IMG/VR virus record: IMGVR_UViG_3300026260_000475
Coordinates: 1 to 64,000 of that record
From: a virus
Taxonomy: Duplodnaviria > Caudoviricetes
Direction: 5' to 3' (one strand)
DNA: 64,000 nucleotides
A program made the translations under genes and the position numbers. The notes beneath the pieces are model-generated. The model worked only from the letters and a program-made list of their open reading frames with translations. It was not told the origin of the DNA and did not search any database. Positions 1 through 57,406 of this stretch are shown piece after piece (the stretch's first letter is position 1; each line of letters starts with the position of its first letter).

Positions 1-255
1 ATAATTAAAAAGAAGTTAACAGAACCTACTTTTGTTGAAAAGATGAATGATAAGTATATAATATGTGATGCATCTCGTACTCAAAACGTGAATGAAGAAA
101 TAAATAATATTATAAATTTTATGTATTCTTCTCCAGAAAATCCAGGACTTATAAAAGAGGCATTACGAACTATTAAAATTCATGATGATTATAGAAATGA
201 ATCTTTTGGAGAAGTTTTTCCTGAAATATATGAATTTTTAAAGGAATATGAATAA
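1..255 (+). CDS. 3' end of a probable twitch-type radical SAM protein (partial, runs in from the window edge)
   Basis: Frame is open from base 1. The C-terminus HDDYRNESFGEVFPE matches the tails of the twitch rSAM paralogs here (e.g. LDNIRSENFSEVFPEL at 23178). Confidence 0.6.
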   Translation: MIKKKLTEPTFVEKMNDKYIICDASRTQNVNEEINNIINFMYSSPENPGLIKEALRTIKIHDDYRNESFGEVFPEIYEFLKEYE

Positions 256-992
256 TGAAAAAGTATAAATATGTGGTAGTAAGTGGATGTAGTTATTCTG
301 CAAGTGATGATAATCCGTCACGGCCTAAGAATGGGAAATACATGGGAACTGTTAATTCAGGAGAAACGTATGGAGATTTAATTGCAGATTATTATGGGGC
401 AGAATTGTATAATTTTTCTCGTTCTGGATATTCATTACATTATATGAATAGAGTTATTTTAGATTGGTGTAGTAGAAATAAAGATAAGTTTAAAGATACT
501 TTAATTATATTTGGTATAACTGAACCAGATAGGATGGAATTTTGGAGTAATAAAGAGGATAGATGGCAAGCTGGATATTGGTGGACTAACAAAGCGAAAC
601 TTAAAGCTAATACATTTGTAAAAAATTGGTATAAATATTTTCATAATGCAAAGGCACAATTTTATGAGGCAACTAATATGATTTTAGGGTTACAATCATT
701 TTTTAAAGTGAGTGATATAGATCATATATTTTTTGATGGTTTAATATCGCTTGATAAATATTGGGAACGTGTATGTGATGATGAAGAAGATAAATTGGGT
801 CATAAATTATTATTTGATAATTTAGTATCACGAGAAAATTGGTATAAACATCCAGAATATGAATCTATGAACAAATTGCTAGAATACAATCCTGAACTGA
901 GAATTTTTCCAAAGGATTTACATCCAAACAAAAAAGCACATAAATATTGGGCAGAATGTTTATTGGAGTATATTAATGATAAAAAAGTTTAA
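255..992 (+). CDS. SGNH/GDSL-like hydrolase or acyltransferase
   Basis: N-terminal SGCSYS block I, block II N..RSG, C-terminal DLHPN..AH. Confidence 0.7.
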   Translation: MKKYKYVVVSGCSYSASDDNPSRPKNGKYMGTVNSGETYGDLIADYYGAELYNFSRSGYSLHYMNRVILDWCSRNKDKFKDTLIIFGITEPDRMEFWSNKEDRWQAGYWWTNKAKLKANTFVKNWYKYFHNAKAQFYEATNMILGLQSFFKVSDIDHIFFDGLISLDKYWERVCDDEEDKLGHKLLFDNLVSRENWYKHPEYESMNKLLEYNPELRIFPKDLHPNKKAHKYWAECLLEYINDKKV

Positions 993-2517
993 TTTTTATT
1001 TTGATTATTTTTTAACCAATTCTAATAAAATTGTAGAGTTACAAGGTGAAGATGTAATACCGTTACCAAATGCTATGCCTCCTGAATTTTATATTTCGTT
1101 ACAAAATAAAATTCCAAAAGAAACAAATGATTTTTATCATGGGTATTATATGAATCCTGGTGGATGGGCTCGAGAATTAAGATTGATAGAATATTTTAGA
1201 GAATGTAAAGAAATTAATTTTGAAATTAAAAATATTCAAGATACAGTTGAGAAGAATGAATATAATTGGTATGTTATAGAAATAACTGATGTACGATCAA
1301 TAACAATCGCAAATCCACTTACTAATATTCCTAAAAATACTATAAAATTTATTAAAGAAAATGATTTAAAAATATTATTGTGGTGTCCATTTCAAGATAT
1401 TATATATTATAAAGATGATTTGAAGTGGGATAATATTTTTAAGAAGGATTCTTCTTTAGTTGAAAGTGAAAGTGATATATTTAGATTATATTCAATTTAT
1501 GAATTTCTTAGATATTATGATATAAAATTTGAAAATTTGTATTTAAGACACCATACTTTAAATTATTCTGAAGTTATAGAGAAATTAAGTTTAATTTATC
1601 CACAAATTGAAAATTTATCACAAATGAATATATTACCAACAAATGGGTGTCTTTGGGAATATGTATTTTATTTATATAAAGAAGGATATCAACCAATGTT
1701 TTCACATTTAAAAGAAAACAGAAAGAGTTTGGATGAAATAGATTTATCAAAACCTCGTAAAAAGTGGTTTATGTCATTAAATGGTTATGTTAAACCACAT
1801 AGGGTGAGATTATTAGCAGAATTAAAAAGTAGAAATATATTAGATAAAGGTTATTGTAGTTTAATTGGAATGCCATTTGAATATGATTTTGATGATAGTG
1901 GAAATCCATTGAGGTATAACAGAGAAGAACTGGATGAATTACTTGTGCTTATCGATAAAGGTATGGGTGGATATCATTGGGCACATGTAGATAATTTAAT
2001 TGAAGAAACAAAATTCATAGTAGAAAATATACCAATGTTAGTAGATGGTTATACTTTTCATGATAATGATAAAGCATTGCCTGTAGATAATATTTTGGAT
2101 AGTTATTTTTCTATTATAACAGAAACAACAATGGATCCATTATATACTAATGATGCTGAGAGGATAGATAGAGATAAATTTATTTATAGTTTATTAATAT
2201 CTGAAAAAACTTATAAACCATTATATTATATGCATCCATTTATAGTTTTAGGATGTCCAGGTACTTTAAAATATTTAAGGTCTATTGGGTTCGAAACATT
2301 TCCTGAATTTTTTGATGAATCGTATGATGATATATATGATAACGAAAAACGGTATAGGTTTTGTCTTAGAGAAATTGAAAAATTGTGTAATAAAGACTTA
2401 AAAGAAGTACATGAATTATATCAGAGTATTATACCTAAATTAAAGCATAATAAAGAGATGATTGAACAATATGATTTTAAAAAAGAATTGGAGAGGTGGT
2501 TTAGCTATGAAAACTAA
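976..2517 (+). CDS. Uncharacterised 'ET..EK..KP..HPF' family protein (possible glycosyltransferase-like fold)
   Basis: C-terminal SIITET...ISEKTYKP..MHPFIVLG...GFETF..FFDESYD, shared with six paralogs in the window. Confidence 0.55.
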   Translation: MIKKFNFYFDYFLTNSNKIVELQGEDVIPLPNAMPPEFYISLQNKIPKETNDFYHGYYMNPGGWARELRLIEYFRECKEINFEIKNIQDTVEKNEYNWYVIEITDVRSITIANPLTNIPKNTIKFIKENDLKILLWCPFQDIIYYKDDLKWDNIFKKDSSLVESESDIFRLYSIYEFLRYYDIKFENLYLRHHTLNYSEVIEKLSLIYPQIENLSQMNILPTNGCLWEYVFYLYKEGYQPMFSHLKENRKSLDEIDLSKPRKKWFMSLNGYVKPHRVRLLAELKSRNILDKGYCSLIGMPFEYDFDDSGNPLRYNREELDELLVLIDKGMGGYHWAHVDNLIEETKFIVENIPMLVDGYTFHDNDKALPVDNILDSYFSIITETTMDPLYTNDAERIDRDKFIYSLLISEKTYKPLYYMHPFIVLGCPGTLKYLRSIGFETFPEFFDESYDDIYDNEKRYRFCLREIEKLCNKDLKEVHELYQSIIPKLKHNKEMIEQYDFKKELERWFSYEN

Positions 2518-3274
2518 GGCCGTTATTATTTATGATATGTGGGATAATCATCATTGTATTTCTTCTGATAGAAGAATAGGAGAATTGGCACCAAAAATAA
2601 ATAATTTTATTTCTGTTTGTAGAAGTGATAACATAAAGATTATTCATGGAGTGAGTATGTGTATGGAGTATTATAAAGATACTAAAGCACGACAAAATGT
2701 ATTTAATTTACCCGATGTAGAAGTTCCTAATATTTCGTGGAATAAATTTTCTGATATATTATCAACCCTGATACCTACACGAATTTCACCTAATCTACGA
2801 GGACAGGTAACAACTTGTTCATGTGATACTCATAAAGATACCCCGTGTTGTGGTATGGAAGTTTATGACCCAGAAGTATGGCAACCAATAAAACAACGAG
2901 ATGAAATTCAAATAAAGTCTGAAGATTTTATTATAGATGATAATATTAAAGAAATATATAATATATTATCTTATTATAATATTAAAGAAGTGATTGTGGT
3001 GGGGGTGCATTTGAATGGGTGTATCATGGATAGAAATTTTGGAATTATTAGATTAAAGGCATTAGGTATAGAACCAATTGTATGTAAAGATTTGATAGAT
3101 ACACATCATCAATATGAGGACGAAGAAATTCCATTGGAAGAACTGCATGAGGTGGGTAACAATGTTACGATTGATTGGATTGATGATATTTGGTGTCCAG
3201 TAGTTAAAAGTGAAGAGATTATAAATAGATTATTTAAAAGTAGTGGTGCTAATTTTGCAAATTCCGGCGTTTAG
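2507..3274 (+). CDS. Isochorismatase/cysteine hydrolase family protein
   Basis: AVIIYDMW..H near the N-terminus and GVHLNGCIM with catalytic Cys. ATG 2507 follows GGAGAGG, so it is preferred to the TTG at 2462. Confidence 0.65.
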   Translation: MKTKAVIIYDMWDNHHCISSDRRIGELAPKINNFISVCRSDNIKIIHGVSMCMEYYKDTKARQNVFNLPDVEVPNISWNKFSDILSTLIPTRISPNLRGQVTTCSCDTHKDTPCCGMEVYDPEVWQPIKQRDEIQIKSEDFIIDDNIKEIYNILSYYNIKEVIVVGVHLNGCIMDRNFGIIRLKALGIEPIVCKDLIDTHHQYEDEEIPLEELHEVGNNVTIDWIDDIWCPVVKSEEIINRLFKSSGANFANSGV

Positions 3275-4064
3275 AAAAATAGATATAGAAACTCATAGTT
3301 ATTGCAATAGAACATGCGACTTTTGTAGTGATTATATCTATCCACGGCATTTTATGAAAGAGATGGATAGGGGGGTGTTTTCAAAAATAATAGATGAACT
3401 TGTAGAGTTGGGATATGACAGATATATATTTTTATTTAGATATAATGAACCTCTAGCAAATTTACCTAATATTAATAGATGTGTAGCGGAGATAAGAGAA
3501 AAACTACCAAAGGTAAAGATTGGAATAAACACTAATGGTGATTATTATCGTAAGAGTGGGAGAGATGGAACTGAGATGGTGGATATGATCCAAAAAGATA
3601 TTGATGCGGATTATCTTACTATAATGGATTATGATAATAGATTTGAAGAATTTATCGATGAAGATGACAACGGTGGTGTAAGAATGATGCAATTAGATAG
3701 TATAGGTAATATGTGTGATAGAGGTGGTACATTAAAAGGAAAGGGTTATTTTGATGATCCATATAATACAGATGAATTAAGAACTGAAGCGTGTTATGAA
3801 CCCGAAAGAGTATTGGCTATAGATTATTTGGGTAACATTACTTTTTGTTGTAATTTTAGAATAGAAAATCCAGCACATAAAGATTTAATATTTGGTAATA
3901 TAAAGGATACTACTATAGTAGAAGCTTATAATAAATCAACTGAGTTTAGAGAAGGTGTGGCAAAATCTATATTTCCAGATCCATGTAAGTATTGTCAGAT
4001 GAAACCTGGTAGATTTTCAAGAGATAATCCATCCATTGGTAATAATATGGAAACGTATGTATGA
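3243..4064 (+). CDS. Radical SAM protein with C-terminal SPASM/twitch domain
   Basis: CNRTCDFC, NEPL, NTNG; C-terminal C..P...G.ITFCC...GN...C..C. Confidence 0.85.
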   Translation: MVLILQIPAFRKIDIETHSYCNRTCDFCSDYIYPRHFMKEMDRGVFSKIIDELVELGYDRYIFLFRYNEPLANLPNINRCVAEIREKLPKVKIGINTNGDYYRKSGRDGTEMVDMIQKDIDADYLTIMDYDNRFEEFIDEDDNGGVRMMQLDSIGNMCDRGGTLKGKGYFDDPYNTDELRTEACYEPERVLAIDYLGNITFCCNFRIENPAHKDLIFGNIKDTTIVEAYNKSTEFREGVAKSIFPDPCKYCQMKPGRFSRDNPSIGNNMETYV

Positions 4065-6276
4065 GAGAAGTGTTATGTCATCAATAAATGGTCGTATTTC
4101 AACCGAATGGATTCATAATAATCGTCCCTATAATGGTTTGTTTAGAGCCTATTGGACTGAAGATGGTAATGCTTCAGTAGAAAATACAGGTTTACCAGTT
4201 AGGTATGAATGGTATTGCAAAGATGGTAAAAGAGCAGATGGTATATCAAGAGGTTGGTGGCCAAATGGACAATTAAAACAGGAAATGACTTGGAAAGACG
4301 GAGAACTTTTATTAGAGATTCATTGGGGTAAGAATGGAGTAAAGACGGCTAGATATACTTGGAAGAATGGGAAACGAGATGGATTACAGACTTACTGGTA
4401 TCCAAATGGACATAAGAGAAAAGAATCAACTTACAAAGATGGGAAACAAGATGGAGTAGAAACTAGGTGGTATCAAAATGGACAGAAGATATATGAAGTA
4501 AATTATAAGGAAGGGTTATATTATGGTGATAATATTGATAGCCCCTATAGTGGTAAGGTGGTTATTTATTATGAGAATGGAAAGAAAGAGTATGAAGGAA
4601 CTTTCAAGGATGGGAAACTAGAAGGATTAGTTACTGGGTGGCATGAGAGTGGACAAAAACATTATGAAAAGCCTTACCATGATGGTAAAACTAATGGGTT
4701 ATCTATTGAGTGGCATACTAATGGTCGTAAGGCGTATGAAGCAACGTGGGAAGATGGGAAAGAGGAAGGAGTGGTTATCCTATGGAAGCCTAATGGGCAG
4801 GTAGAAAGAAAAGATATATATACGGATGGAATAAGGACGAGACCAGCGGGGATTGATTATGAGGATTATTTGGTTTCAGGAGAGGATGAAGTACACCATA
4901 AAGAGTACGGGCCAAACCATAATCCTAAAAATGGAAAATTTAGAAAACATTGGTCAAACGGTAACTTGAGATATGAGTGGGAATATAAGAATGGAAAACG
5001 AGTAGACGGTATATCAAGAGGTTGGTGGCCAAATGGTCAATTAAAACAAGAGTGGACTTGGAAAGATGGTAGAGTAAATGGATTACAGACTCATTATTGG
5101 ATGAGTGGAAAAAAGAGCTGTGAAGGGAGTTATAAAGAGATTCCTGAAAAGCTGGTTAGAGTAGGAAAATGGACTTGGTGGTATGAAAAAGAAACGGGGG
5201 AGCAAAAATATAGAGAAATAAATTATAAAAACGATCCTATAGAAACTAGACATGGATTAGTTACTCTTTGGTATGATAATGGACAGAAAAAAGTTGAAGG
5301 AAATTACAAAGATGGAAAAGAAGATGGAATTTGGATTGCATGGGATGAGAATGGACAAATAAAAAGAGAGAATAAAAATTATGATGATAAACTATTCTCA
5401 TTGAATGCGGGATATAACAAAATACCCGAAGAATTCTTATTAGAACCTCTGAAAAAATATAAAAAGAGAAAGAAAAAAATTATATTTAATGGATGTAGCC
5501 TGACTTATGGGGCCGAATCCGTTCATGATGGGATAGACCAACATTTAGATAATTTTAATAACTCATATCCAATGTTGATACAAAAAAAATTAAAAAATAT
5601 TGAGGTAATTAATTTGGCATCGTGTGGTAAATCTAATTCACAAATGTTTTGTCAAAATATTGATTATTTAATGGAAAGTATTTCCAATGAAGATGAACTT
5701 ATTTTTATTACTCAATGGAGTTGGGTTGAGAGGTTTCCCAAAGTAGTTTCAGTTAAAAATATAAATAAGTTTGAAAAAACTGCTGAATGGTTGTCATTTT
5801 TAAAATATTATAGTGATCAAGAACACGGAATATCAACTATTGCAGATTATGATGGTAGACATGATACTTGGGTTGATGCTGATTTAAATATGGAAGAACA
5901 TAATGTACAATATAACCTTTTGGCTAATATGAGTTTAACTATGTTGTTATCCTATATAAATTTGTTAGATACTTATAATGTTAAAAATTTAAATTATATC
6001 ACCCAATTACTTACTACAGATGAAATGAAAGTAAGTAATCGCTTTCAAGAGGGCAATAATGATTTTACCAGTACTTATGATTTGAATTGCATCACAGAAG
6101 AAATATTAAAACACAAAAATTTTTTGATGGATGATTGGATTACGGAGTTTATTTGTAAACCAAAATTTTTAAGAAAGAACTCCCACGCTTCAGCTGAAGC
6201 ACATCAATTGTGGGCAAATAAGTTATTAAGGATTTTATTAGATAAGGATTATATTAAGAAAGAAGATTTAGTTTGA
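4057..6276 (+). CDS. MORN-variant (YwqK-like) repeat protein fused to a C-terminal SGNH-like domain
   Basis: Many W/Y-x-x-NG-Q-K...Y-KDG repeats in the first ~450 aa, then FNGCSLTYG, NLASCGKSN and NSHAS..AH. Start placed at ATG 4057. Confidence 0.75.
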   Translation: MYERSVMSSINGRISTEWIHNNRPYNGLFRAYWTEDGNASVENTGLPVRYEWYCKDGKRADGISRGWWPNGQLKQEMTWKDGELLLEIHWGKNGVKTARYTWKNGKRDGLQTYWYPNGHKRKESTYKDGKQDGVETRWYQNGQKIYEVNYKEGLYYGDNIDSPYSGKVVIYYENGKKEYEGTFKDGKLEGLVTGWHESGQKHYEKPYHDGKTNGLSIEWHTNGRKAYEATWEDGKEEGVVILWKPNGQVERKDIYTDGIRTRPAGIDYEDYLVSGEDEVHHKEYGPNHNPKNGKFRKHWSNGNLRYEWEYKNGKRVDGISRGWWPNGQLKQEWTWKDGRVNGLQTHYWMSGKKSCEGSYKEIPEKLVRVGKWTWWYEKETGEQKYREINYKNDPIETRHGLVTLWYDNGQKKVEGNYKDGKEDGIWIAWDENGQIKRENKNYDDKLFSLNAGYNKIPEEFLLEPLKKYKKRKKKIIFNGCSLTYGAESVHDGIDQHLDNFNNSYPMLIQKKLKNIEVINLASCGKSNSQMFCQNIDYLMESISNEDELIFITQWSWVERFPKVVSVKNINKFEKTAEWLSFLKYYSDQEHGISTIADYDGRHDTWVDADLNMEEHNVQYNLLANMSLTMLLSYINLLDTYNVKNLNYITQLLTTDEMKVSNRFQEGNNDFTSTYDLNCITEEILKHKNFLMDDWITEFICKPKFLRKNSHASAEAHQLWANKLLRILLDKDYIKKEDLV
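4240..5066 (+). repeat. 59-bp intragenic direct repeat (4240-4298 and 5008-5066)
   Basis: 54/59 identical, first 29 nt identical (GGTATATCAAGAGGTTGGTGGCCAAATGG); encodes GISRGWWPNGQLKQE.TWK twice. Confidence 0.9.
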
Positions 6277-7439
6277 AAATTAAATCAAAAACAATAGATA
6301 AAAATGAATTAGTTATAGATGATTTCACTCCAGGTAAACCATTAAGAATATATGATAAAGATGGTAATTGGAAAGATTTTAATAACGAGAAATTAGTAGG
6401 TGACAAATTACATCATTTTAAAGGATGGAAATGTGGTGCTGGAACATTGAGTATGCATGTAGGTTTTCATGGTGAGGTAACGGTTGGTTCTTATTCTTGT
6501 AAGTGGGGAGTTAATAGTCCTAAGTCAATAAAAGAACAAAAATTGAGAAATATAAAACATGAATATGGTGTAAATATACTCGGTAATGTGTTTGATGATT
6601 TCGAATTACCTGCGGATTGGATAACTTGTGAACAAAAAGAATGTATTTGTGGGGCAGATTTATTCATACCTAAAGCAAAAACAAAAAAAGATTTGGATTT
6701 ACTGAGAAAGACACAATATTTATATACAGACTTTGGTAAACGGACTAAAAAAGATTTTGAAATTGTGGCAATGGAGAAATCCTTTTTACCTGGTTATAAA
6801 AAACAAATTTATTGGGATTTGTCTCTTGTTTGTAATTATGCGTGTTCTTATTGTTGGCAACACGATAAAAAAGAAAAATATAATACTTATGAGCAGTTAA
6901 TGGATGCTACTCATAAAATAGAGGATAAATTCATTAAAGGAGAAAATTGTAATTTTTGTATATCGGGAGGAGAACCAACATTTCAACCAGGTTATATGGA
7001 TTGGGTTAAATATTTATTTAATAAAGGATATTATGTTTCATCACATAGTAATGGAAGTAATAAACCTGAAGTTTATAAAGAATTAATATATTATAGTGAT
7101 TTAAATATAAGTGTTCATTTTGAATTTTATAAATCTGAGAGATTATTGAAAGTTTTAGATACAATCACACAAGAAAAAGTTAAGAATGATAACAAAGGGG
7201 TAAAACACTTGGAAGTAAAATTAATGTTCAGACCTGGGATTAGAGAAGAATTGTTGTGGTTTGAAAGACAAATACATCAAATACCTAATTTTACTGATTA
7301 TTGTACATTATCAGTAGTTCCATTAGTTGGCCCGTATAAATATGAACCAAAAGAATCTTATTTTAAAGAAAAGGAATATGATATAATAGAAAAATATTAT
7401 ACTGACGAGGATAAAGAATTATTTGGAGATAGAAATTGA
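6273..7439 (+). CDS. Radical SAM protein with the Cys-rich auxiliary domain at the N-terminus
   Basis: N-terminal FKGWKC...CEQKECICGADLFIPK, then CNYACSYC, SGGEPT and SNGS. Confidence 0.85.
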   Translation: MKIKSKTIDKNELVIDDFTPGKPLRIYDKDGNWKDFNNEKLVGDKLHHFKGWKCGAGTLSMHVGFHGEVTVGSYSCKWGVNSPKSIKEQKLRNIKHEYGVNILGNVFDDFELPADWITCEQKECICGADLFIPKAKTKKDLDLLRKTQYLYTDFGKRTKKDFEIVAMEKSFLPGYKKQIYWDLSLVCNYACSYCWQHDKKEKYNTYEQLMDATHKIEDKFIKGENCNFCISGGEPTFQPGYMDWVKYLFNKGYYVSSHSNGSNKPEVYKELIYYSDLNISVHFEFYKSERLLKVLDTITQEKVKNDNKGVKHLEVKLMFRPGIREELLWFERQIHQIPNFTDYCTLSVVPLVGPYKYEPKESYFKEKEYDIIEKYYTDEDKELFGDRN

Positions 7440-7455
7440 AGTTAGAGGAGATAAA

Positions 7456-10671: not shown

Positions 10672-10674
10672 TAT

Positions 10675-19010: not shown

Positions 19011-19239
19011 AACTCATAAGGAAAGAGAAGTAGTTGCTTTAGAATCAATTGCTGATAGTTTTAAGAGAATAGCAGATTCAGTTGAGACATTTGAGGATGT
19101 TACTTTAAATGTAGACCCAGAAGCTTGGTCTGAACGATTAGAGTGGTACTTAAATGAATTTTTTCTTATGGCTAAGAGTAAAGTGGTTGGTCAAGGTCAA
19201 AGTAGACCAGACCGTAGAGCACCTGTATCTAAGAAATGA
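18997..19239 (+). CDS. Small hypothetical protein (80 aa)
   Basis: AAGGAG upstream of the ATG; coupled to both neighbours. Confidence 0.65.
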   Translation: MAETKTHKEREVVALESIADSFKRIADSVETFEDVTLNVDPEAWSERLEWYLNEFFLMAKSKVVGQGQSRPDRRAPVSKK

Positions 19240-37780: not shown

Positions 37781-37808
37781 ATTTATTTATGATTTACTAT
37801 AATAACTA

Positions 37809-37817: not shown

Positions 37818-37822
37818 ATATA

Positions 37823-49905: not shown

Positions 49906-50849
49906 AGATATTAGTAACAGGAACAACTGGATTAATTGGATATAATTTATCTAAGAGATTATTGAAAGAAGGACACGAAGTATTCGGAGTAATTCATAAA
50001 AATATAAAACCTATTGCGGGAGTTTTATATCAGTACGGAGATTTACAAGATAGAAAATTTTGCGATAGTGTGACAGAGGGAAAGGATATTGTGATTAATT
50101 GTTCCGCAAATACATCTAATGCGGTAGATACAGTTAAATCACCTTTAGTTCATGTTACACCAAATGTTATAGTTAATACACAGTTGATAGAGTCTGCATA
50201 TTTTAATAAAGTTAAAAAATATGTTTTTATCAGTAGTTCAACGGTCTACCCACCATCATATGATAAAAAGGTTGATGAAACTTGGAATATATTTGAAGAA
50301 CCTTATCCAGTTTATCATGGAGTTGGTTGGATGAAGAGATATGGTGAAGTATTATGTGATTTATATGCAAATCAGTTATCACCAAATATGGATTGTTTAG
50401 TAGTTCGTCCTGCTAATTGTTATGGACCTCACGACAAATATGAATTTGATAAATGTCATGTAACACCCGCTACAATTAAAAAGGTTGTAGACAAACATAA
50501 TCCAATACAAGTCTGGGGTGATGGAGAGGATGTTAGAGATATTATTTATATTGATGATTTTGTAGATGGTTTAGTAAATGTAATGGATAAGTGTGAAGAA
50601 AAATATGAAGTAGTCAATATAGGGAGTAATGAAAGTTATTCAATAAATCAAATATTAAAAAAATGTATGGAAATAGAAAATTATAATGTACCTATTGAAC
50701 ATATTAGCGGAAAACCATCTATGATACCAATTAGAAAAATAAGTTCGGATAAGATGAAAGAAAAGTATGATTGGAAATGTAAATATACACTCGAACAAGG
50801 TTTGAGAAATACAATAACTTGGTATAAGGAGAAATATCATGAAAAATAA
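49902..50849 (+). CDS. NAD-dependent epimerase/reductase (GDP-fucose synthase-like)
   Basis: VTGTTGLIG, SSSTVY, WMKR, RPANCYGP.D, VWGDG.DVRD.IYIDD. Confidence 0.85.
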   Translation: MKILVTGTTGLIGYNLSKRLLKEGHEVFGVIHKNIKPIAGVLYQYGDLQDRKFCDSVTEGKDIVINCSANTSNAVDTVKSPLVHVTPNVIVNTQLIESAYFNKVKKYVFISSSTVYPPSYDKKVDETWNIFEEPYPVYHGVGWMKRYGEVLCDLYANQLSPNMDCLVVRPANCYGPHDKYEFDKCHVTPATIKKVVDKHNPIQVWGDGEDVRDIIYIDDFVDGLVNVMDKCEEKYEVVNIGSNESYSINQILKKCMEIENYNVPIEHISGKPSMIPIRKISSDKMKEKYDWKCKYTLEQGLRNTITWYKEKYHEK

Positions 50850-51618
50850 AAAAGAAATTATAAATACTTGGGAAGAAAATGGATTTATAAACTTCCCACT
50901 ATTCACTTCAGAAGATGTAAAAGAAATGAAAACTGAGTTAATGAGATTACTTGAGGAGAGAGGAGATGTTAGTAAATTTTATGAACATCCACATTTAAAA
51001 TCAGAGTTATTTTTAAAAATAACGAAGGACAAACGACTTGTTAGTATGGTGGAGACATTAATAGGAAATGATTTAGATATTCCAGATTGTAAGATAGAGG
51101 CAACCCAAACTTGGGCATATTTAAAACCACCAGGATCGTTGGGTAGAGATGTACATCATAATATATTTTATTCTCACGCAAATTATGGAGAAGTAGTAAA
51201 TGTAACTATTGCAATAGATGACTCTGATGAAGAAAATGGATGTTTATATTTTTATCCAGGTTCTCATAGTGATAGAATGGTATATCCTATTCCTGATTCA
51301 TCACATACTGAATTTGCTTCAAAAGATGAAGAACGAATAAAAACAAATCCAGAAGGACAACCAAATGAAAGAGGTAAACCTTGTTATGTTCCTGGTAATT
51401 GGGTTGATGGAGAGTGGGTAGATAAATATCCAAAAGTATATGTTCCGATGAAAGCAGGTTCAGTAGCACCATTAAATTCTCATGTGTTACATGGTTCGGA
51501 TGAGAATAAAACCAAAGATAGATGGAGAAGGTCTTTTTTAATACAATATCAAAAACTTGGTAAAATACAAAGTGTTGGTGAACATATGAAAAGAGAAGTT
51601 ATAGATGTATATAATTAA
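50839..51618 (+). CDS. PhyH-family 2OG-Fe(II) dioxygenase with H-x-N motif
   Basis: KPPG....HHN, IAIDD...ENGCL...PGSH, MKAG, LHGS..N....RR. Confidence 0.8.
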   Translation: MKNKKEIINTWEENGFINFPLFTSEDVKEMKTELMRLLEERGDVSKFYEHPHLKSELFLKITKDKRLVSMVETLIGNDLDIPDCKIEATQTWAYLKPPGSLGRDVHHNIFYSHANYGEVVNVTIAIDDSDEENGCLYFYPGSHSDRMVYPIPDSSHTEFASKDEERIKTNPEGQPNERGKPCYVPGNWVDGEWVDKYPKVYVPMKAGSVAPLNSHVLHGSDENKTKDRWRRSFLIQYQKLGKIQSVGEHMKREVIDVYN

Positions 51619-51635: not shown

Positions 51636-52712
51636 ATGATTGAACATCCACAACGACTTTCATATAATACAGTTAAATGGACTACTATTAAGTTAAAAGT
51701 AGTTTTTGATAGAGTTTGTAAAAATTCTATATTTGATTTAAGTTCAGGTGACGCAGTATTTTATGATGTAGATTATTATAGAATGTTAAAAGGTAATGGT
51801 TATGTGAAAGATACTGATTTATGGATTTTTTGGATGAAACACGAAGCTTATTTACCATTCGAAACTGATATTAAAAATTTACACAAGGTTTGTGAAGAAC
51901 TTAACTTAGATGAGAGTAAAGTTGTCTTTATTAATGGTGATATGAATCTTAGTAAAAATTATAATAAGTGGTTTAAAAAAAGTGGTTTTAATAAACCAAT
52001 TAATTGTATTGGATTCCCTTGGTATTTTTTACATGATAGGGAAGATTTAAAAACAAATCCATATAAATTTATAAAGTATCAAGACAGAGAAGTACAACCA
52101 AGTAAAAAATTTATTTGTTTGAATGGGACGTATAATAAATCAAGAGATTACATTATAAATAAATTAGACAAATTTAAAAATGATGGATATTTGAGTAATT
52201 TGAGTAAAGGTATAAAGTTAGATAAAATTTCAATAGACAAATTGGTAGGTCAAGATAGAAATGATGAACCATCTGTTTTTCTTTTAAATGATTTTCATCA
52301 AGATTCCTTTTTTAGTATAATTAATGAAGCTGGTGGTGGTTGGGAAGCATTCGACCAAGATGATATTCACTCTTTTTTGACCGAAAAAATTACTAAACCA
52401 TTATATTATGGTCATCCGTTTATCTTGATTGGTTGGAAAAACTCTTTGAAGTTTTTAAAAGAAATGGGATTTGAGACTTATGATGATATATTTGATTTAA
52501 CATATGATGGTATGGAAACTTGGAAAGAACGAACAGTTTCAGCTTGGAAACAAATAGAAAAGATATTATCTTTACCAGATGATGATTTCTATCACATATT
52601 TGAGGAAATACAAGATAAAGTAATTTATAATCAACAAAGATTTTTTAATAATGATGGTTATATAGATGATTTTATCAGTAAGTTAATGGGGATATCTAAT
52701 GCAGCCAAATGA
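51636..52712 (+). CDS. 'ET..EK..KP..HPF' family protein
   Basis: FICLNG....R, SIINE...LTEKITKP..GHPF...GFETY..IFD..YD. Confidence 0.55.
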   Translation: MIEHPQRLSYNTVKWTTIKLKVVFDRVCKNSIFDLSSGDAVFYDVDYYRMLKGNGYVKDTDLWIFWMKHEAYLPFETDIKNLHKVCEELNLDESKVVFINGDMNLSKNYNKWFKKSGFNKPINCIGFPWYFLHDREDLKTNPYKFIKYQDREVQPSKKFICLNGTYNKSRDYIINKLDKFKNDGYLSNLSKGIKLDKISIDKLVGQDRNDEPSVFLLNDFHQDSFFSIINEAGGGWEAFDQDDIHSFLTEKITKPLYYGHPFILIGWKNSLKFLKEMGFETYDDIFDLTYDGMETWKERTVSAWKQIEKILSLPDDDFYHIFEEIQDKVIYNQQRFFNNDGYIDDFISKLMGISNAAK

Positions 52713-53817
52713 TTTTAGTTCAGTTTGTGAAAAGTTTGGTACTATTATAGGTAACGATATAAGAGATACCCATAACCTTAAAAATGAGTCTAACATAATA
52801 ATGGATTTATCAGATGTTTTGGTGAATAGAGCTAATACAGAACCTAATTTTTATTTATTTATAAATTGGATAACAGATTCAGATGTAAAAAGATTTATTT
52901 CAGAGTTAGAAAGTGTTATAGAATTACGAGGAATAAAAAAAGATAAAGTTATGGTTTTAATTAATAGAAATCTTGCATTACCACAAAGTGAAATAAAGTT
53001 TGTAAATAGTGATTTTTTAATGTATAAGGTTGGGTTACATTCTAATAGGTATTCTGATACATTTTATAAAGATTTAAGTTTTTTAACAGACAAAAGAGAA
53101 CGGAAAATTTTATCATTGAATAGAAGATTGAATAATTGTTGGCATAGGGTATTATTATTAGCATTATCAAGTAAACATAACTTATTTGAAAACAATTATA
53201 TCACTTACAATTTAGACCCAGAGTTTGATTCAGAAGTACCACCTTTAGAAGAATTGATTAACTTAACTGCACAACCAAAAGGAAGTTATAATTTAATATC
53301 ACAAAAAGAATTATATACAGAGATGGATACATTAGTAAAAAATAAAAAAAATGTATATGAATCTTTTTCCCACGAAAGTCCTGGATATATTTTTACTATT
53401 AAGGATGAGACGGTTGATATTTATAAGAGTAGTTATATCAGTTTAGTTACTGAGACGTTTTTTTATGAAGATGATTATATTATAACAGAAAAAGTTTATA
53501 AACCTATAATACATTATCATCCATTTATAGTTTTAGGTAGTCCATATACATTAAAACATATGAGAAGTATAGGATTTAAAACATTTGGAGATTTTTGGGA
53601 TGAGAGTTATGATGAAGAAGAAGATAATGATAAGAGATTTGAAAAAGTTTTTAATTTATTGATGGGTTTTAATAAGATGTCTATTGAGGAATTACATAAT
53701 TTATATCTTGAGATGATTCCTACATTAAAATATAACTATGATTTGATGATGGGATATGGAAATAAGAAACAATTGACAAAAAATTTAGAAAATAGTATAT
53801 TAGAGGTAATAAAATGA
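52699..53817 (+). CDS. 'ET..EK..KP..HPF' family protein
   Basis: SLNRR....HR, SLVTET...ITEKVYKP...HPFIVLG...GFKTF..FWDESYD. Confidence 0.55.
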   Translation: MQPNDFSSVCEKFGTIIGNDIRDTHNLKNESNIIMDLSDVLVNRANTEPNFYLFINWITDSDVKRFISELESVIELRGIKKDKVMVLINRNLALPQSEIKFVNSDFLMYKVGLHSNRYSDTFYKDLSFLTDKRERKILSLNRRLNNCWHRVLLLALSSKHNLFENNYITYNLDPEFDSEVPPLEELINLTAQPKGSYNLISQKELYTEMDTLVKNKKNVYESFSHESPGYIFTIKDETVDIYKSSYISLVTETFFYEDDYIITEKVYKPIIHYHPFIVLGSPYTLKHMRSIGFKTFGDFWDESYDEEEDNDKRFEKVFNLLMGFNKMSIEELHNLYLEMIPTLKYNYDLMMGYGNKKQLTKNLENSILEVIK

Positions 53818-54506
53818 TATATAAGAAAAGAGAATGGGATGAATCTCCTGTTCCGTTTATATATGTAGATAATTTCTTAGATGAAAAAACTTGTTTAGAA
53901 TTACATGATGAATGTTTGAATGCACCAAGAGGTGGATGGACATTATTCAGTAGAGCTGGTTCTGCTATGGAAGAATATAATGATTTGTTTTATACAAAAA
54001 CTGCACATAAAATAACTTATGATTTATTACATAGTGGAGAGTTCATTTATGAGTTAGAACAACTTACAGGTATTGTAGGTTTGATGCCAGATCCACATTT
54101 AGTGGGAGCAGGATTTAGTAGATTTAGAAAAGATAAAGATTTAAAAATACATCATGATTTTAATTGGAATGATAGATTAAGATTACATAGAAAACTAACT
54201 TGTATGTTATTTTTAAATCCAGATTGGAAAGAAACTTGGGGCGGTCATCAACAATATTGGGAATCAAGAGATGGGGAGATGCTTGATGAAGTAGCACCAA
54301 TGTTTAATAGATTCATAATGTTTGAAAATAAAAAAGAATCTCCGTATCATTCAGTAAAAAAATTAACTTGTCCTAAGAATCAAGTAAGAACTGCATTGAG
54401 AGTTTTTTATTATATTAGTTCAAGTGAGTATGATGAGAACGACCCACCACATAGAAGTATTTATGATACAGATGAGTATACACATACGAGGTTATATGAT
54501 GAATAA
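53814..54506 (+). CDS. 2OG-Fe(II) oxygenase (prolyl-hydroxylase-like 2OG-FeII_Oxy_3 type)
   Basis: DNFL, PDP.L.GAG, IHHDFN, LNPDW...WGG, P.FNR, YHSV, R..L..FYY. Confidence 0.88.
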   Translation: MIYKKREWDESPVPFIYVDNFLDEKTCLELHDECLNAPRGGWTLFSRAGSAMEEYNDLFYTKTAHKITYDLLHSGEFIYELEQLTGIVGLMPDPHLVGAGFSRFRKDKDLKIHHDFNWNDRLRLHRKLTCMLFLNPDWKETWGGHQQYWESRDGEMLDEVAPMFNRFIMFENKKESPYHSVKKLTCPKNQVRTALRVFYYISSSEYDENDPPHRSIYDTDEYTHTRLYDE

Positions 54507-55020
54507 TTGGAAAATAGGAAAAATAGAACCATTTTGGGACGATGAATATAAACATTTAAATTATAGAAAAGAACCATTTAATAATCCAAAAGATTTGGAA
54601 TGGTGGAGAGGTCAAGGATATACACATCCAAACGAATTATTTACTGGTATGATGTGTAAACATGGAGAGAATCAACCAAGTTGGACATCTAAAATAGTAG
54701 AGTGGTTAGAAAAAGATTTTAATTGGAGTGATGTAGGAGTAAATTATTATCGAATGGAAACAGGTGTTATATTACCACCACATGAAGATATGTATGTACA
54801 ATATTCAGAAATGTTTAATTGTACTTTAGATGAGATAGAAAGAGTTTTATTGTTTATGGAAGATTGGAGAAGTGGTCATTACTTTGAAGTAGACCGTAAT
54901 CCAATTGTGGATTACAAAGCAGGAACTTATGCGTGGTGGAAAGGAAAGGTAGAACATATGGCAGCTAACATAGGAGCTGGTTATAGATATACATTACAAT
55001 TAACGGGACATGTAAAATGA
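54496..55020 (+). CDS. Cupin/2OG-Fe(II) oxygenase-like protein
   Basis: LPPHED, DW.SGH.F, EHMAAN.G...RYTLQ.TG. ATG 54496 (or 54499) follows GAGG. Confidence 0.7.
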   Translation: MMNNWKIGKIEPFWDDEYKHLNYRKEPFNNPKDLEWWRGQGYTHPNELFTGMMCKHGENQPSWTSKIVEWLEKDFNWSDVGVNYYRMETGVILPPHEDMYVQYSEMFNCTLDEIERVLLFMEDWRSGHYFEVDRNPIVDYKAGTYAWWKGKVEHMAANIGAGYRYTLQLTGHVK

Positions 55021-55916
55021 ATATAACAGAAAAGTATAGAGGGGGAAACGCAATACCAGATTTAGAGGTAATTGATTTTTGGAAAGAGTCGTTAAAGGAT
55101 TTAACTGATGTTATTCTTACAGACCACTATTCATTTCCTAATAATGGAAAATTATTTACTGATAAATTTGATGAATATATTAAGGCGTCTAAGTTAAATA
55201 ACCTAATTGGATTAGATGAGTATGAACATAGGTCTTATGTACATGGAACAAGTCAAACATTTGATAGTTTTTGGATGAGAAATCATGATAAAAGATTTAG
55301 ATGTTTCAAAGGAGAGTTCTTTTATCATAAAGCAAATTGGAAAAAGTTTCATAAGTGGTGTTATATAGAAGATGATAGAATTAATACAAATGATGCAGTA
55401 GTTATTAGTTTACCATTTTCAGATTATGGTAAAGAACATCCTAAGATGAGAGAACTATTAAAAGAATGTGAAATGTTTGGTGTTCCAGTATTGATTGATT
55501 GTGCTTATTATTTAATAGGTGAAGGTATAGAATTTGATTTCACAGAGTACGGATGTATTGAAGATATAACATTTAGTTTAAGTAAAGGTTTTCATCTTTC
55601 TAATAGATTACGTGGTGGTGTGAGATATACGAAAAAGTATTATGATGACAATATACATATTATGAATGAATGGAATCAGTATAGTCATTTATCAGCACAT
55701 CTTGGTACTAAATTGTTATCACATTTCCCATCAGATTATACTGTTAATAAATGGAAGGATAAACAACTTCAGTTTTGTAAAGAAAATAATTTGAAACCAA
55801 GTGATTGTGTTATATTTGCATTAGAGACAGATGGAGATAAATATAAAGAGTTAAATAGAGGTACAGAGGTTAATCGTTTGTGTATTTCATATGTGATAGG
55901 TGATAAGATAGAATGA
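55017..55916 (+). CDS. PLP-dependent fold-type I enzyme (aminotransferase-like)
   Basis: GT.Q.F, SLPF, LIDCAY (PLP Asp), FSLSKGF (PLP Lys), R.G. Confidence 0.7.
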   Translation: MNITEKYRGGNAIPDLEVIDFWKESLKDLTDVILTDHYSFPNNGKLFTDKFDEYIKASKLNNLIGLDEYEHRSYVHGTSQTFDSFWMRNHDKRFRCFKGEFFYHKANWKKFHKWCYIEDDRINTNDAVVISLPFSDYGKEHPKMRELLKECEMFGVPVLIDCAYYLIGEGIEFDFTEYGCIEDITFSLSKGFHLSNRLRGGVRYTKKYYDDNIHIMNEWNQYSHLSAHLGTKLLSHFPSDYTVNKWKDKQLQFCKENNLKPSDCVIFALETDGDKYKELNRGTEVNRLCISYVIGDKIE

Positions 55917-57406
55917 GACTGTTAGGTCTTAATGCGTTGAATCATGACGCGGCGGTCTGTGTAGTTGAAGATAATAAAATTGTTTTTGCTTCACATAGTG
56001 AACGATATTCAAAAATTAAAAATGATCCAAACTTGAATCATGATATAATGGATAAAGCTTTATCTTATGGTAAACCAGATAAGGTAGTTTGGTTTGAAAG
56101 ACCATATCTTAAAAAGACACGACAATTCTACGCAGGTCAGTATAGTGAGGTGTTTGATGTATTTAATATACCATCTCAATATTTAAAGAAATTTAACATT
56201 TATAGTAATATCAAGTATGTATCACATCATAAATCACATGCCTCAGCTGGTTACTTTACAAGTCCTTATGATGAGGCGTGTATTGTAGTGATTGATGCGA
56301 TTGGGGAATGGGAGTGTGCTTCTATTTGGTATGCTCACGGTAATCATCTTGAAAAAAGATATTCTATTAGTTATCCAAACTCATTAGGTTTGTGGTATTC
56401 AGCTATGACTCAACGATTAGGATTAAAACCACAAGAGGACGAATACATTCTTATGGGAATGGCTGGTTGGGGAACACAAGACCACAAACTAAAGAATGCA
56501 ATTCGTAAAGACTTTTTTAATCATTCTAATAAACCGATTGATTTAAAGAACAATTTACATAGAGGTTGTTTAGATTGGAATCCAGAATACTACCCTGATG
56601 ATGGTAGTGATGATTGGAAATTCAATATAGCAGCGAATGTTCAATGGATATGTGAGGAAGAAATTCAAAAAGTATTTACTATTGCACGAAGATTAGTTCC
56701 TGAAACGGATAATTGTGTTTATATGGGTGGAGTGGCATTAAATTGTGTAGCCAACTCAATTATAGCAAGAGACCATTATCCTAATTTATGGATATTACCA
56801 AATCCAGGAGATGCTGGTAGTTCTCTTGGGTGTATTTTAGATTATACTAAACAACATATTGAGTTTTCTAATGCTTTTTTGGGTCATGAGATACAAGGTG
56901 AGTACCCTGTTACTCAAGTGAGTAAAGAATTACTCAAGGGTAACATAGTTGGTGTAGCAAATGGTAAAGCTGAATATGGTCCACGAGCATTAGGTAATAG
57001 AAGTCTGCTTGCTGACCCAAGAGGTGAAGATATTAAAGATAAAGTAAATAAAATCAAACATAGACAAGAGTTTAGACCATTCGCACCAAGTGTATTGGAA
57101 GAACACGCACACGAAATCTTCGATATGCCTACACGAAAATCACAATTTATGCAGTTTGTAGCAGATTGTAAGTATCCTGACAAATATCCAGCAATCTGTC
57201 ATATTGACAGAACGTCACGGGTTCAGACTGTAAGTCACGAAGATAATCCAGGATATTATAGGTTAATTAAAGAATTTTATAAAAAAACAGGTTGTCCTAT
57301 GGTTTTAAACACAAGTTTGAACATAAAAGGCCAACCAATCGTTAATGATGAGAAAGATGCACTATCTTTTGAAAAAAAATATAAAGTAAAGGTAATATCA
57401 AATTAA
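55913..57406 (+). CDS. O-carbamoyltransferase (NodU/CmcH/TobZ family)
   Basis: HDAA, SERY, HH.SHA, DAIGE, GGVALNC, PGDAG, EYGPRALGNRS, FRPFAP, NTSLN..G.P. Confidence 0.93.
   Translation: MRLLGLNALNHDAAVCVVEDNKIVFASHSERYSKIKNDPNLNHDIMDKALSYGKPDKVVWFERPYLKKTRQFYAGQYSEVFDVFNIPSQYLKKFNIYSNIKYVSHHKSHASAGYFTSPYDEACIVVIDAIGEWECASIWYAHGNHLEKRYSISYPNSLGLWYSAMTQRLGLKPQEDEYILMGMAGWGTQDHKLKNAIRKDFFNHSNKPIDLKNNLHRGCLDWNPEYYPDDGSDDWKFNIAANVQWICEEEIQKVFTIARRLVPETDNCVYMGGVALNCVANSIIARDHYPNLWILPNPGDAGSSLGCILDYTKQHIEFSNAFLGHEIQGEYPVTQVSKELLKGNIVGVANGKAEYGPRALGNRSLLADPRGEDIKDKVNKIKHRQEFRPFAPSVLEEHAHEIFDMPTRKSQFMQFVADCKYPDKYPAICHIDRTSRVQTVSHEDNPGYYRLIKEFYKKTGCPMVLNTSLNIKGQPIVNDEKDALSFEKKYKVKVISN

Follow-up and report, generated by a model that had tools for sequence, protein, structure and literature searches.

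What would a tailed phage make with 57 kb of sugar-modifying enzymes, and on what would the product be placed? The question is raised by a 64,000-nucleotide stretch of viral DNA (hereafter the window), which comprises bases 1–64,000 of the 105,343-bp contig IMGVR_UViG_3300026260_000475, an IMG/VR virus record classed as linear. Positions 1–57,406 of the window form an island in which an earlier note, made from the sequence alone, had recognized a probably phage-encoded system for building and decorating a glycan. At the level of enzyme families this proposal is supported, and we consider it very probable that the island is a phage island for the biosynthesis and tailoring of sugars or glycans. 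The acceptor is a separate matter: a virion protein is put forward here as a tentative candidate, held with rather less than even confidence.

That the island belongs to a phage follows from the genes on the same contig and from the continuity of its composition. Matches to PHROG profiles identify the large terminase TerL (contig positions 66811–68385, E = 2.9e-46), the portal (68394–70205, E = 2.4e-72), the prohead protease (71983–72615, E = 9.7e-54), a gp23-type major head protein (75595–77226, E = 2.8e-71), the tail sheath (95809–98241, E = 4e-73) and, also downstream of the island, the tail tube (E = 6.4e-26). A terminase, portal, protease, gp23-type capsid, contractile sheath and tube, as in a T4-like myovirus, are thereby placed on one molecule between 66.8 and 98.9 kb; a baseplate hub and a 1667-aa (amino-acid) fibre-like protein were also identified downstream of the island with these profiles. 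The guanine plus cytosine (GC) content is 29–36% and unbroken from the island through the structural genes (26–34% in the window), the GC skew of the window is steadily positive at about 0.3, and the GC content of third codon positions is 19% in the island and 16% in the structural genes. With the IMG/VR classification added, the block is phage-encoded, as had been supposed. A cellular origin is ruled out by the T4-type structural genes on the contig and by the virus record, and the objection raised at the outset, that the contig might be a cellular chromosome, fails with the finding of terminase, portal and capsid. A chimeric assembly has no support, as the composition is continuous and the module described below also occurs on other viral contigs with T4-type capsids. 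The nearest capsids found with tblastn are those of an uncultured 484-kb phage, Microcystis phage Mel-JY01 and Flavobacterium phages (51–53% identity); the identity to classical T4-type capsids is about 26%, and the phage collection contains no near-identical record. The contig represents about half (CheckV completeness of 48%) of the genome of a marine T4-like myovirus.

The island is compact and co-oriented. It contains 53 non-nested open reading frames (ORFs) of at least 100 aa, all on the plus strand, and one further ORF of 80 aa; the sole minus-strand ORF of at least 100 aa (10299–10613) is nested in a plus-strand gene. Neighbouring ORFs overlap at 42 of the 52 junctions, and the gap is 10 nucleotides (nt) or less at 47 of the 52, in agreement with the co-oriented and coupled block first described. 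Judged by these overlaps, the island may well be one unit of expression. The only sizeable non-coding gaps are of 111, 144 and 75 nt. The 80-aa ORF (18997–19239, plus strand) bridges two genes and occupies the largest gap between ORFs of at least 100 aa, and the largest true intergenic gap (144 nt; 37781–37924) is a possible internal transcription start. Its start is AT-rich and is followed by AACACGGGTG in two exact copies spaced 50 nt apart; this repeat is within chance. A hairpin overlaps the start of the dehydratase gene, and the fold of the gap is not significant (z = −1.5). The gap matches no Rfam family and a promoter scan of it gave scores at the level of shuffled sequence. The motif TATAAATA, which we take to be the T4 late-promoter motif, has 14 copies, only three of them within 60 nt upstream of a start, and is uninformative on timing. 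The island continues leftward beyond the end of the contig, since a 13th radical S-adenosylmethionine (SAM) gene is cut off there; its C-terminal piece (61–237, plus strand) matches positions 339–397 of NF033640 with E = 5.6e-7.

Activated sugars would be supplied by a recognizable set of enzymes (positions are those of the window, and all of the island genes given here and below are on the plus strand). The set comprises a cytidylyltransferase of the CMP-sugar synthetase type (7423–8151; PF02348, E = 4e-8), a UDP-glucose/GDP-mannose 6-dehydrogenase (9403–10671; three UDPG_MGDP_dh domains), a nucleoside diphosphate (NDP)-sugar 4,6-dehydratase (37925–38965; GDP_Man_Dehyd, E = 9e-72), an RmlC-like 3,5-epimerase (38955–39461; PF00908, E = 4e-28) and three epimerases/reductases of the short-chain dehydrogenase/reductase (SDR) type (41449–42333, 48940–49905 and 49902–50849; PF01370, E = 9e-38, 3e-29 and 3e-43, respectively).

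The earlier note had counted at least four glycosyltransferases. Glycosyltransferases are indeed present, and the count is corrected to about ten: three of the GT7 family and seven with a predicted GT-B fold. The three that are recognized by Pfam are all GT7 enzymes with Glyco_transf_7N and 7C domains above cut-off; one stands alone (11967–13367), one is fused to a ConA-like/LamG domain (16678–18282) and one is fused to a LamG/sialidase-N-like domain (20141–21583). The GT7 core of all three is of an animal type; for the second, the one searched, the best PDB relative is β4GalT7 (E = 6.7e-30, residues 10–174 only). The third has 1331 metagenomic homologs, on contigs of up to 287 kb, and its architecture predominates among the matches listed; the GT7–lectin fusion has no match in 50,697 GenBank phage records.

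The other seven glycosyltransferases (family A) were grouped by all-against-all BLAST and aligned, and belong to no Pfam family (976–2517, 32271–33761, 33758–35308, 35301–36818, 45253–46605, 51636–52712 and 52699–53817). An AlphaFold model of the last of these, built from 66 sequences, has a predicted local distance difference test (pLDDT) score of 82.9 and a predicted template-modelling (pTM) score of 0.85. In a comparison of this model with 48,161 PDB representatives, 46 chains reached a Z score of at least 8, with 243–291 residues aligned in the best. The closest are T4 β-glucosyltransferase (PDB entry 1c3j, Z = 11.5) and a chlorovirus glycosyltransferase (3oy2, Z = 10.7), followed by an α-1,3-fucosyltransferase (5zoi, Z = 10.3) and T4 α-glucosyltransferase (Z = 10.2); by their titles, the matches listed are GT-B glycosyltransferases or GT-B-like enzymes. 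Foldseek matches to the PDB are weak (best E = 0.011), and profiles of family A and of the SGNH-like family B described below gave nothing useful against PDB sequences. Among the viral models of BFVD there are 22 matches at E ≤ 0.001, 21 to proteins of uncultured tailed phages, 20 of these without a name and the one named protein fused to a UDP-glucose dehydrogenase domain, and one to a mimivirus protein. A family A profile found 14,691 relatives at E ≤ 0.001 among 1.84 billion representatives (6,516 at E ≤ 1e-30), including tandem-fused forms, and some relatives are fused to NAD-epimerase or UDP-glucose dehydrogenase domains; a single member had no match in the 50,697 GenBank phage records. 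Going by the predicted structure, family A consists of GT-B-fold glycosyltransferases. A closer assignment to GT10 is a lead only: family A carries an ...ET...TEK..KP motif that presumably resembles the GT10 motif, and its ESM Atlas neighbours score 0.78–0.79; PF00852 has no match on the contig, but the control was silent in every genome, and the fucosyltransferase 5zoi is tied with other folds.

The second large component is radical SAM chemistry. Twelve complete radical SAM enzymes had been counted, and in all 12 the CX3CX2C motif is present together with a match to PF04055, which reaches the Pfam cut-off in nine and falls just below it in ORFs 3243, 24475 and 27761 (ORFs are named by their first position); the truncated gene at the contig end adds a 13th. 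All-against-all BLAST groups seven of the complete genes (family C). Six of these exceed the curated cut-off of 170 bits for NF033640, the NCBIfam family of twitch domain-containing radical SAM proteins: 21570–23066 (319.5 bits), 23178–24485 (366 bits), 24475–25695 (394 bits), 26295–27764 (293 bits), 31013–32284 (298 bits) and 42320–43684 (336 bits). The seventh (46602–47756), in which an N-terminal SPASM/twitch domain (PF13186) is followed by PF04055, is divergent and at 50–54 bits is not a member by score. In these N-twitch enzymes the cysteine-rich twitch domain is, unusually, N-terminal, with five conserved cysteines before CX3CX2C. The family has more than 1000 metagenomic relatives. A model of ORF 24475 (pLDDT of 92.3) matches CteB, GDGT-MAS, viperin, SkfB, SuiB, anSME, BlsE and MoaA about equally with Foldseek, so the fold does not separate enzymes acting on peptides, nucleotides and sugars.

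The remaining radical SAM enzymes are more varied. ORF 3243–4064 encodes a small protein with CX3CX2C at residue 21 and a C-terminal SPASM/twitch domain (PF13186 and PF04055), and ORF 10675–11961 a probable B12-binding (class B) enzyme, with PF02310 and PF04055 above cut-off and the NCBIfam B12-radical-SAM families below it. The 745-aa product of ORF 28776–31013 appears related to class B methylases and matches PF04055; it has no Pfam B12 match, and its NCBIfam matches are all below threshold, the nearest being the RiPP (peptide made on ribosomes and modified after translation) maturation radical SAM C-methyltransferase family (TIGR03975, E = 1.4e-25). Two further enzymes have a cysteine-rich domain, N-terminal in ORF 6273–7439 (PF04055, E = 2.4e-10) and C-terminal in ORF 27761–28786 (CX3CX2C at residue 25; PF04055 below cut-off). 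In a two-segment BLAST comparison these two share a common core and a cysteine-rich (twitch-like) domain in opposite order, such that both sides of a domain swap are present in one island.

Nine SGNH domains had also been proposed, and here the evidence divides. The motif blocks stand: block I, G[C/D]S, and a C-terminal D..H block align in all nine ORFs. Only four are related by BLAST, and no Pfam SGNH model is matched at cut-off level in the island, PF00657 reaching 22.7 against a cut-off of 23.6 on one ORF and PF13472 having no match; DUF6071 matches are sub-threshold, at two places. The four that form family B (255–992, PF00657 E = 1.3e-4, below cut-off; 39458–40348; 44408–45265; and the divergent 43677–44411) carry G-C-S close to the N-terminus and D..H close to the C-terminus, and the ESM Atlas neighbours of family B, and of ORF 39458 in particular, are viral DUF6071 and GDSL clusters (0.96–0.98). 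ORF 44408 has an asparagine where its eight relatives have the histidine of block V and may be a catalytically dead copy. A hidden Markov model (HMM) of family B and the block I pattern add the other five. These are the C-terminal domain of a MORN-repeat protein (4036–6276; MORN_2, E = 2.6e-36; DUF6071, 23.7 bits, below cut-off; GCS at residue 483), ORF 19236–20144 (family B HMM, E = 1e-5, and motif blocks) and three that are SGNH-like at the level of motifs: 18279–19010 (N-terminal GCS and C-terminal D.H block), 25688–26305 (GDS at residue 5 and C-terminal H block) and 47753–48943 (GDS at residue 97; family B HMM, E = 0.008; no Pfam or PDB match). Weak Pfam matches of ORF 18279 to an ADP-ribosyltransferase and of ORF 19236 to a poxvirus kinase were discounted, as both ORFs align with the SGNH-like set. 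The seven N-twitch, seven GT-B, nine SGNH-like and three GT7 paralogs fit the earlier idea that the product is diversified by paralog expansion.

Further tailoring would be provided by a SAM-dependent methyltransferase (16008–16709; Methyltransf_24, E = 7.6e-10), a thiamine diphosphate (ThDP) enzyme, oxygenases and a carbamoyltransferase. The ThDP enzyme is encoded by two adjacent genes, a 197-aa E1 alpha-like subunit with the PP domain (40336–40929; E1_dh, E = 5e-14, 52 bits, profile positions 5–175 of 300) and a 181-aa subunit with the PYR domain (40914–41459; Transket_pyr, E = 4.7e-7, 30 bits); both matches are above cut-off. Classical E1 subunits are much longer, and a C-terminal transketolase domain was not found. 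The last gene of the island encodes a carbamoyltransferase of the NodU/CmcH/TobZ family (55913–57406; Carbam_trans_N, E = 1e-37; Carbam_trans_C, E = 1e-57), which is not NodU itself (131 bits against an NCBIfam cut-off of 1000). Pfam thus bears out the sugar-nucleotide enzymes, the E1-type pair, the methyltransferase, the carbamoyltransferase and the adjacent endolysin of the earlier note. Of its four oxygenases, two were recovered: a PhyH-family Fe(II)/2-oxoglutarate (2OG) oxygenase (50839–51618; PF05721, E = 2e-21), whose match is confined to 50872–51531 with no other PhyH on the contig, and a 2OG–Fe(II) oxygenase of a prolyl-hydroxylase-type Pfam family (53814–54506; 2OG-FeII_Oxy_3, E = 5.6e-15). 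The other two were not found; two ORFs without Pfam families have faint links, one to the PhyH ORF (8148–8882; phmmer, E = 0.02) and one to a prolyl 4-hydroxylase in the PDB (36827–37780; E = 0.61). The pyridoxal phosphate enzyme was not borne out: DegT (PF01041) has no match on the contig, and a Pfam search of eight unknown ORFs, with E values as high as 10 allowed, gave nothing.

Content that recurs among related phages can indicate which of these families work together. IMG/VR was scanned with one N-twitch protein, which gave 40 loci (31 clusters at 95% nucleotide identity) with 10 kb on each side; genes were counted from stop-to-stop ORFs with BLAST at 1e-6. Contig ends truncate many of the loci, and little can be read into an absence. 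At least three N-twitch paralogs are present in 35 of the 40 loci and at least five in 27; the carbamoyltransferase (43–54% identity) and the family A GT-B enzymes are each found in 26. A DUF6071 family that has no BLAST match in the window occurs in 28 (representative 38.6 bits, cut-off 27) and lies, where mapped, between the N-twitch array and the carbamoyltransferase. Less frequent are a small P-loop kinase (20 of 40), the radical SAM enzyme of the 27761 type (eight, with 37–45% identity in six and 25–26% in two), the dehydrogenase (seven) and a class-B-like radical SAM enzyme (five). In 12 loci the 10 kb on either side of the radical SAM array include a gene for a dCMP deaminase (in one, at 19639–20181 of the locus); of four large relatives, three have a canonical-looking thymidylate-synthase gene 5–8 kb away from the module. 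The carrier contigs are 144–289 kb in length and 41–80% complete. A capsid was found in three of five, and is only 36–38% identical to that of the window phage, which indicates that the module crosses lineages. Across these loci, the conserved core is an N-twitch array, a DUF6071/SGNH-like gene and a carbamoyltransferase, often with the GT-B family. The island is modular, and in other large phages the core is found apart from the remaining genes.

Cultured phages carry parts of the core. The Ralstonia jumbo phage RsoM2USA has it in minimal form: one N-twitch gene, an SGNH-like gene and a carbamoyltransferase gene (49% identity) lie within 5 kb, all annotated as hypothetical; the 31.5-kb stretch that was searched contains no homolog of the glycosyltransferases of the window, and the paper describing the phage mentions neither the module genes nor modified DNA. 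N-twitch paralogs are also carried by Vibrio phages K566 and K567, five of them in the region of K566 that was mapped. In bacteria the family is rare, found in three of 401 sampled genomes of one phylum, including the centre genome with a probably viral contig. In the other two, the N-twitch genes have as neighbours either an RmlC-like gene or a GT2 gene together with one for an SDR epimerase; this slim sample of two predicted neighbourhoods points to sugars. The scan for cellular relatives returned only two short contigs of metagenome-assembled genomes (MAGs). One of these, a 4.6-kb contig in a Porticoccaceae MAG, consists solely of a tandem N-twitch array, with three complete and two partial genes, and is probably a viral contig binned by mistake.

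Where could such a product be attached? A Kyte–Doolittle scan of 98 contig ORFs (85 + 13), a crude scan of half a genome, found none with more than one hydrophobic segment, so that multi-pass membrane proteins are absent by this measure and neither an initiating transferase nor a flippase, polymerase or membrane acyltransferase is in hand. A similarly crude scan detected a signal-peptide-like N-terminus in no island protein, and the island enzymes look cytoplasmic, on predicted hydropathy. By the same scan, the contig (48% complete genome) holds no Wzx/Wzy-dependent or ABC-dependent surface-polysaccharide locus, and the objection that the island might be an ordinary lipopolysaccharide (LPS) or capsule locus fails, there being no flippase, polymerase or multi-pass membrane protein on 105 kb. 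As the contig can neither start the synthesis of a lipid-carried glycan nor export one, the acceptor would be cytoplasmic, and most likely a virion protein.

The proposed route would begin with the activated sugars made by the dehydrogenase, 4,6-dehydratase, RmlC-like epimerase, three SDR enzymes and cytidylyltransferase. The NDP-sugars would be remodelled by SDR, ThDP and radical SAM steps and joined into an oligosaccharide by about ten soluble glycosyltransferases. The oligosaccharide could then be acylated or deacylated, hydroxylated, methylated and carbamoylated, and the acceptor would be a cytoplasmic one, most likely a virion protein glycosylated before lysis. The lectin-like domains of two of the GT7 enzymes and a β4GalT7-like GT7 core lean towards virion glycosylation. 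We regard a cytoplasmic phage sugar island that acts most likely on a virion protein as the best explanation of the whole, at a confidence that still falls short of even. If it is right, this would be by far the most elaborate bacteriophage glycosylation system known, and would be relevant to adsorption, to grazing and to how sticky particles are in the sea.

Several observations weigh against this explanation. The virion protein is a candidate acceptor, suggested by gene content. The assignment of the SGNH-like set derives from motifs and sub-threshold matches and is putative, and it is not evident what the ClpP protease, the MORN-repeat protein, the Hint-like ORF and eight unknown ORFs would do in making a glycan. 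Membrane segments are likewise lacking in the soluble GT-B enzymes that serve LPS and capsule synthesis, so the export genes could be those of the host or lie in the unseen half of the genome. The best match of family A is a DNA glucosyltransferase of T4, within about one Z unit of protein- and lipid-directed glycosyltransferases, and the N-twitch fold is equally close to radical SAM enzymes acting on peptides, nucleotides and sugars. The core in RsoM2USA, with no glycosyltransferase homologs, implies that the substrate need not be a phage-made glycan, and the occurrence of the core elsewhere without the rest means that one common product for all of the island genes is not implied. Published work also points in other directions. 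Comparable islands have been interpreted as modifying the host O-chain (PMC7029224); a phage carbamoyltransferase of the same Pfam family is a proven enzyme of DNA containing 5-hydroxymethylcytosine (5hmC) (PMC8670742); and phage clusters of GT-A and GT-B enzymes, epimerases and cytidylyltransferases place mono- to trisaccharides on 5hmC (bioRxiv 10.1101/2023.12.21.572611).

The first of these directions, remodelling of the host envelope, survives best among the alternatives and is nevertheless unlikely. Altered NDP-sugars and soluble glycosyltransferases would feed an LPS, capsule or S-layer pathway of the host, and the change of surface during a long latent period would block superinfection. 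Besides the published reading, many of the family A fold matches are enzymes of LPS or lipid-linked glycans, such as WaaB, WaaG, PglA and WbnH. Against this, the hydropathy scan leaves 105 kb without an initiating transferase, flippase, polymerase, ligase or membrane acyltransferase, and known phage O-antigen modifiers are membrane proteins. By its capsid, the phage is not close to the HTVC008M-type pelagimyophages, and ten glycosyltransferases and twelve radical SAM enzymes far exceed what serotype conversion needs.

Hypermodification of DNA is improbable. The GT-B enzymes and the carbamoyltransferase would act on hydroxymethylpyrimidines, with the sugar and radical SAM enzymes supplying and tailoring the glycan. 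Precedents exist: a phage enzyme of the TobZ family makes 5-carbamoyloxymethylcytosine and co-occurs with thymidylate-synthase homologs and dCMP deaminases (PMC8670742), and the GT-B enzymes of the saccharide-placing clusters resemble T4 β-glucosyltransferase (bioRxiv 10.1101/2023.12.21.572611). It counts against the idea that the carbamoyltransferases with flanking glycosyltransferases were those on unmodified contigs (PMC8670742). Family A matches both T4 glucosyltransferases (Z = 11.5 for the β and 10.2 for the α enzyme), but Z scores do not separate DNA glycosyltransferases from others. The related loci contribute dCMP deaminase (12 of 40), the P-loop kinase (20 of 40) and a thymidylate synthase near the module (three of four large relatives), yet the relatives' thymidylate synthases carry PFNIASY, with asparagine rather than aspartate. 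Asparagine at this position marks true thymidylate synthases and aspartate marks dCMP hydroxymethylase. There is no thymidylate-synthase homolog (PF00303) on the contig, which is 48% complete, and a search for TET/JBP (PF12851), with E values up to 0.1 allowed, found none on the contig or in four large relatives (all five records being incomplete). With ten glycosyltransferases required, the glycan would also be far larger than any known DNA adduct. The stronger form of the idea, that the module writes radical-tailored, acylated and carbamoylated oligosaccharides onto phage DNA bases, is less probable still; if true, it would constitute a tier of hypermodification beyond mono- to trisaccharides, spread through large marine phages, and a product on DNA would in any case widen known DNA chemistry.

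A diffusible small molecule, that is, an aminoglycoside-, nucleoside- or oligosaccharide-type metabolite acting on the host, on competitors or on defence systems, is very unlikely. The mix of enzyme classes, a methyltransferase included, resembles that of actinomycete sugar-antibiotic clusters, and among the matches of the N-twitch model are viperin, MoaA and BlsE, whose substrates are nucleotides or nucleoside sugars. A few such genes of cyanophages have been termed 'antibiotic synthesis genes' (PMC12801897). However, no scaffold-forming enzyme (cyclitol synthase, polyketide synthase or non-ribosomal peptide synthetase), exporter or self-resistance gene is present, and the lectin-like GT7 fusions and seven GT-B paralogs point to a polymeric or repetitive acceptor. 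Least probable of all is a mainly protein- or peptide-modifying, RiPP-like function in which the radical SAM enzymes (SPASM/twitch and class B), oxygenases, methyltransferase and ClpP mature a peptide or structural protein and glycosylation is secondary: Foldseek ranks the sactipeptide synthase CteB, SkfB, SuiB and anSME highest for the N-twitch model, ORF 28776 is nearest (below cut-off) to a RiPP C-methyltransferase family, and ClpP and a Hint-like ORF lie within the island, but no precursor-peptide gene is evident in an island so packed that its sole small ORF is the 80-aa linker, sugar-nucleotide genes and ten glycosyltransferases predominate, and bacterial N-twitch genes adjoin RmlC-like, SDR and GT2 genes.

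The other genes of the island are a ClpP-family protease (8879–9391; PF00574, E = 5e-26), a weak isochorismatase-like ORF (2462–3274; PF00857, E = 9e-5) and a weak Hint-domain ORF (14920–15999; PT-HINT, E = 3e-5), the last two below cut-off, together with ORFs that match no Pfam family (13357–13824, 13802–14917, 54424–55020 and 55017–55916). A phmmer search of the PDB with four unknown ORFs gave nothing below E = 0.1, and ORFs 13802 and 55017 in particular have no PDB sequence match. Throughout the window every long ORF is on the plus strand; each of the four minus-strand ORFs that reach 100 aa is nested in a plus-strand gene, and a tRNA search of the window found none.

The right boundary of the island is marked by a GH108 endolysin with a PG_binding_3 domain (57927–58496, plus strand), in which a run of hydrophobic residues at the N-terminus may serve as a signal-anchor. 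It is followed by a lysine-rich 632-aa protein with DUF3008 at its N-terminus (59376–61274), pieces of which match dozens of differently ordered IMG/VR phages; the protein looks mosaic or of low complexity. The relatives retrieved through it are mosaic phages with another gene order and no island genes upstream, and are uninformative on turnover of the island. Between the lysin region and the terminase, a 1192-aa protein (window position 61699 to contig position 65277) has a P-loop kinase-like (AAA_33/zeta-like) domain at residues 70–317 and homologs in many related phages. Between the prohead protease and capsid genes, contig positions 74258–75574 encode a protein with 26% glutamate and 10% aspartate, whose position and composition are those of a T4-type scaffold. 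Several fibre-like virion proteins consist of 20–30% serine and threonine, which is common in fibres and was counted as no evidence.

How the island compares with known systems depends on the feature chosen. Islands of LPS-type genes occur in marine T4-like pelagimyophages and cyanomyophages, and pelagimyophages have a hypervariable 'host recognition cluster', with a mean length of 44.6 kb, that contains glycosyltransferases, UDP-glucose dehydrogenase and radical SAM cassettes (Zaragoza-Solas 2020, PMC7029224). Like those, the present island is large and variable, belongs to a marine T4-like phage and combines sugar genes with radical SAM cassettes gained stepwise. Unlike those, it includes no genes for tail fibres and is located upstream of the lysin and terminase genes, its dominant glycosyltransferases are GT7 and unannotated GT-B enzymes rather than GT8, and the capsid of the phage has only a distant relationship to those of pelagimyophages and cyanophages; the core of N-twitch, DUF6071 and carbamoyltransferase genes is not described in the accessible part of PMC7029224. 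The marine T4-like genome TARA_ERS488813_N000010 has 12 radical SAM genes, which were read as Fe–S metabolism (Nishimura 2017, PMC5332604). The likeness to the present phage, in 12 radical SAM genes and ClpP, is by description only. ClpP, which lies inside the sugar island here (8879–9391), is among the marine-phage Fe–S-related genes in that paper.

What the island shares with the DNA-modifying clusters of Pyle 2023 and Yang 2021 (PMC8670742) is a set of soluble phage enzymes: glycosyltransferases of the GT-A and GT-B types, epimerases, a cytidylyltransferase and a carbamoyltransferase of the TobZ family. In the main texts, these clusters are small and anchored by a cytosine methyltransferase and TET or by a thymidylate-synthase homolog, and radical SAM enzymes are not mentioned. 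Neither a cytosine methyltransferase nor a TET/JBP anchor was found here or beside the module in the relatives, and the thymidylate synthase near the module in relatives is of the PFNIASY type. The island also resembles viral virion glycosylation, the chlorovirus glycosyltransferase 3oy2 being the second-best fold match of family A (Z = 10.7). The glycans of chlorovirus capsids and mimivirus fibrils, and the O-glycans of mycobacteriophage capsids and tails, are made by virus-encoded cytoplasmic glycosylation, with soluble enzymes, unusual methylated glycans and no host export. Phage examples of virion glycosylation involve 2–4 genes, unlike the 54 here, and to our knowledge no virion-glycosylation system uses radical SAM arrays, SGNH expansions or a carbamoyltransferase. 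With the familiar actinomycete tailoring enzymes (BtrN, GenK, TobZ, AviB1/B2, AviO and AviX12) the resemblance is at class level only, in that both combine a carbamoyltransferase with SDRs, a PhyH oxygenase, an E1-like ThDP pair and radical SAM enzymes of the twitch and B12 types. Equivalog scores are far below cut-off (131 against 1000 for NodU and 57 against 500 for AprD4), the twitch domain is N-terminal here and the ThDP subunits are short (197 and 181 aa).

The open-access and bioRxiv literature yielded no description of the module of N-twitch, DUF6071, carbamoyltransferase and GT-B genes, of the GT-B family or of phage GT7–lectin fusions. Three large uncharacterized families (N-twitch, GT-B and GT7–lectin) thus share one tightly coupled block, and the recurrence of the first two together across lineages of large marine phages gives them a genomic context and a testable class of substrates, for which cultured phages exist. 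Whichever acceptor is correct, phages in oxic seawater invest heavily in oxygen-sensitive radical chemistry. Islands of a similar kind had already been described, as had a T4-like genome that carries 12 radical SAM genes; what is new is the recurrence of N-twitch arrays in 40 IMG/VR loci, often in the company of the other core families.

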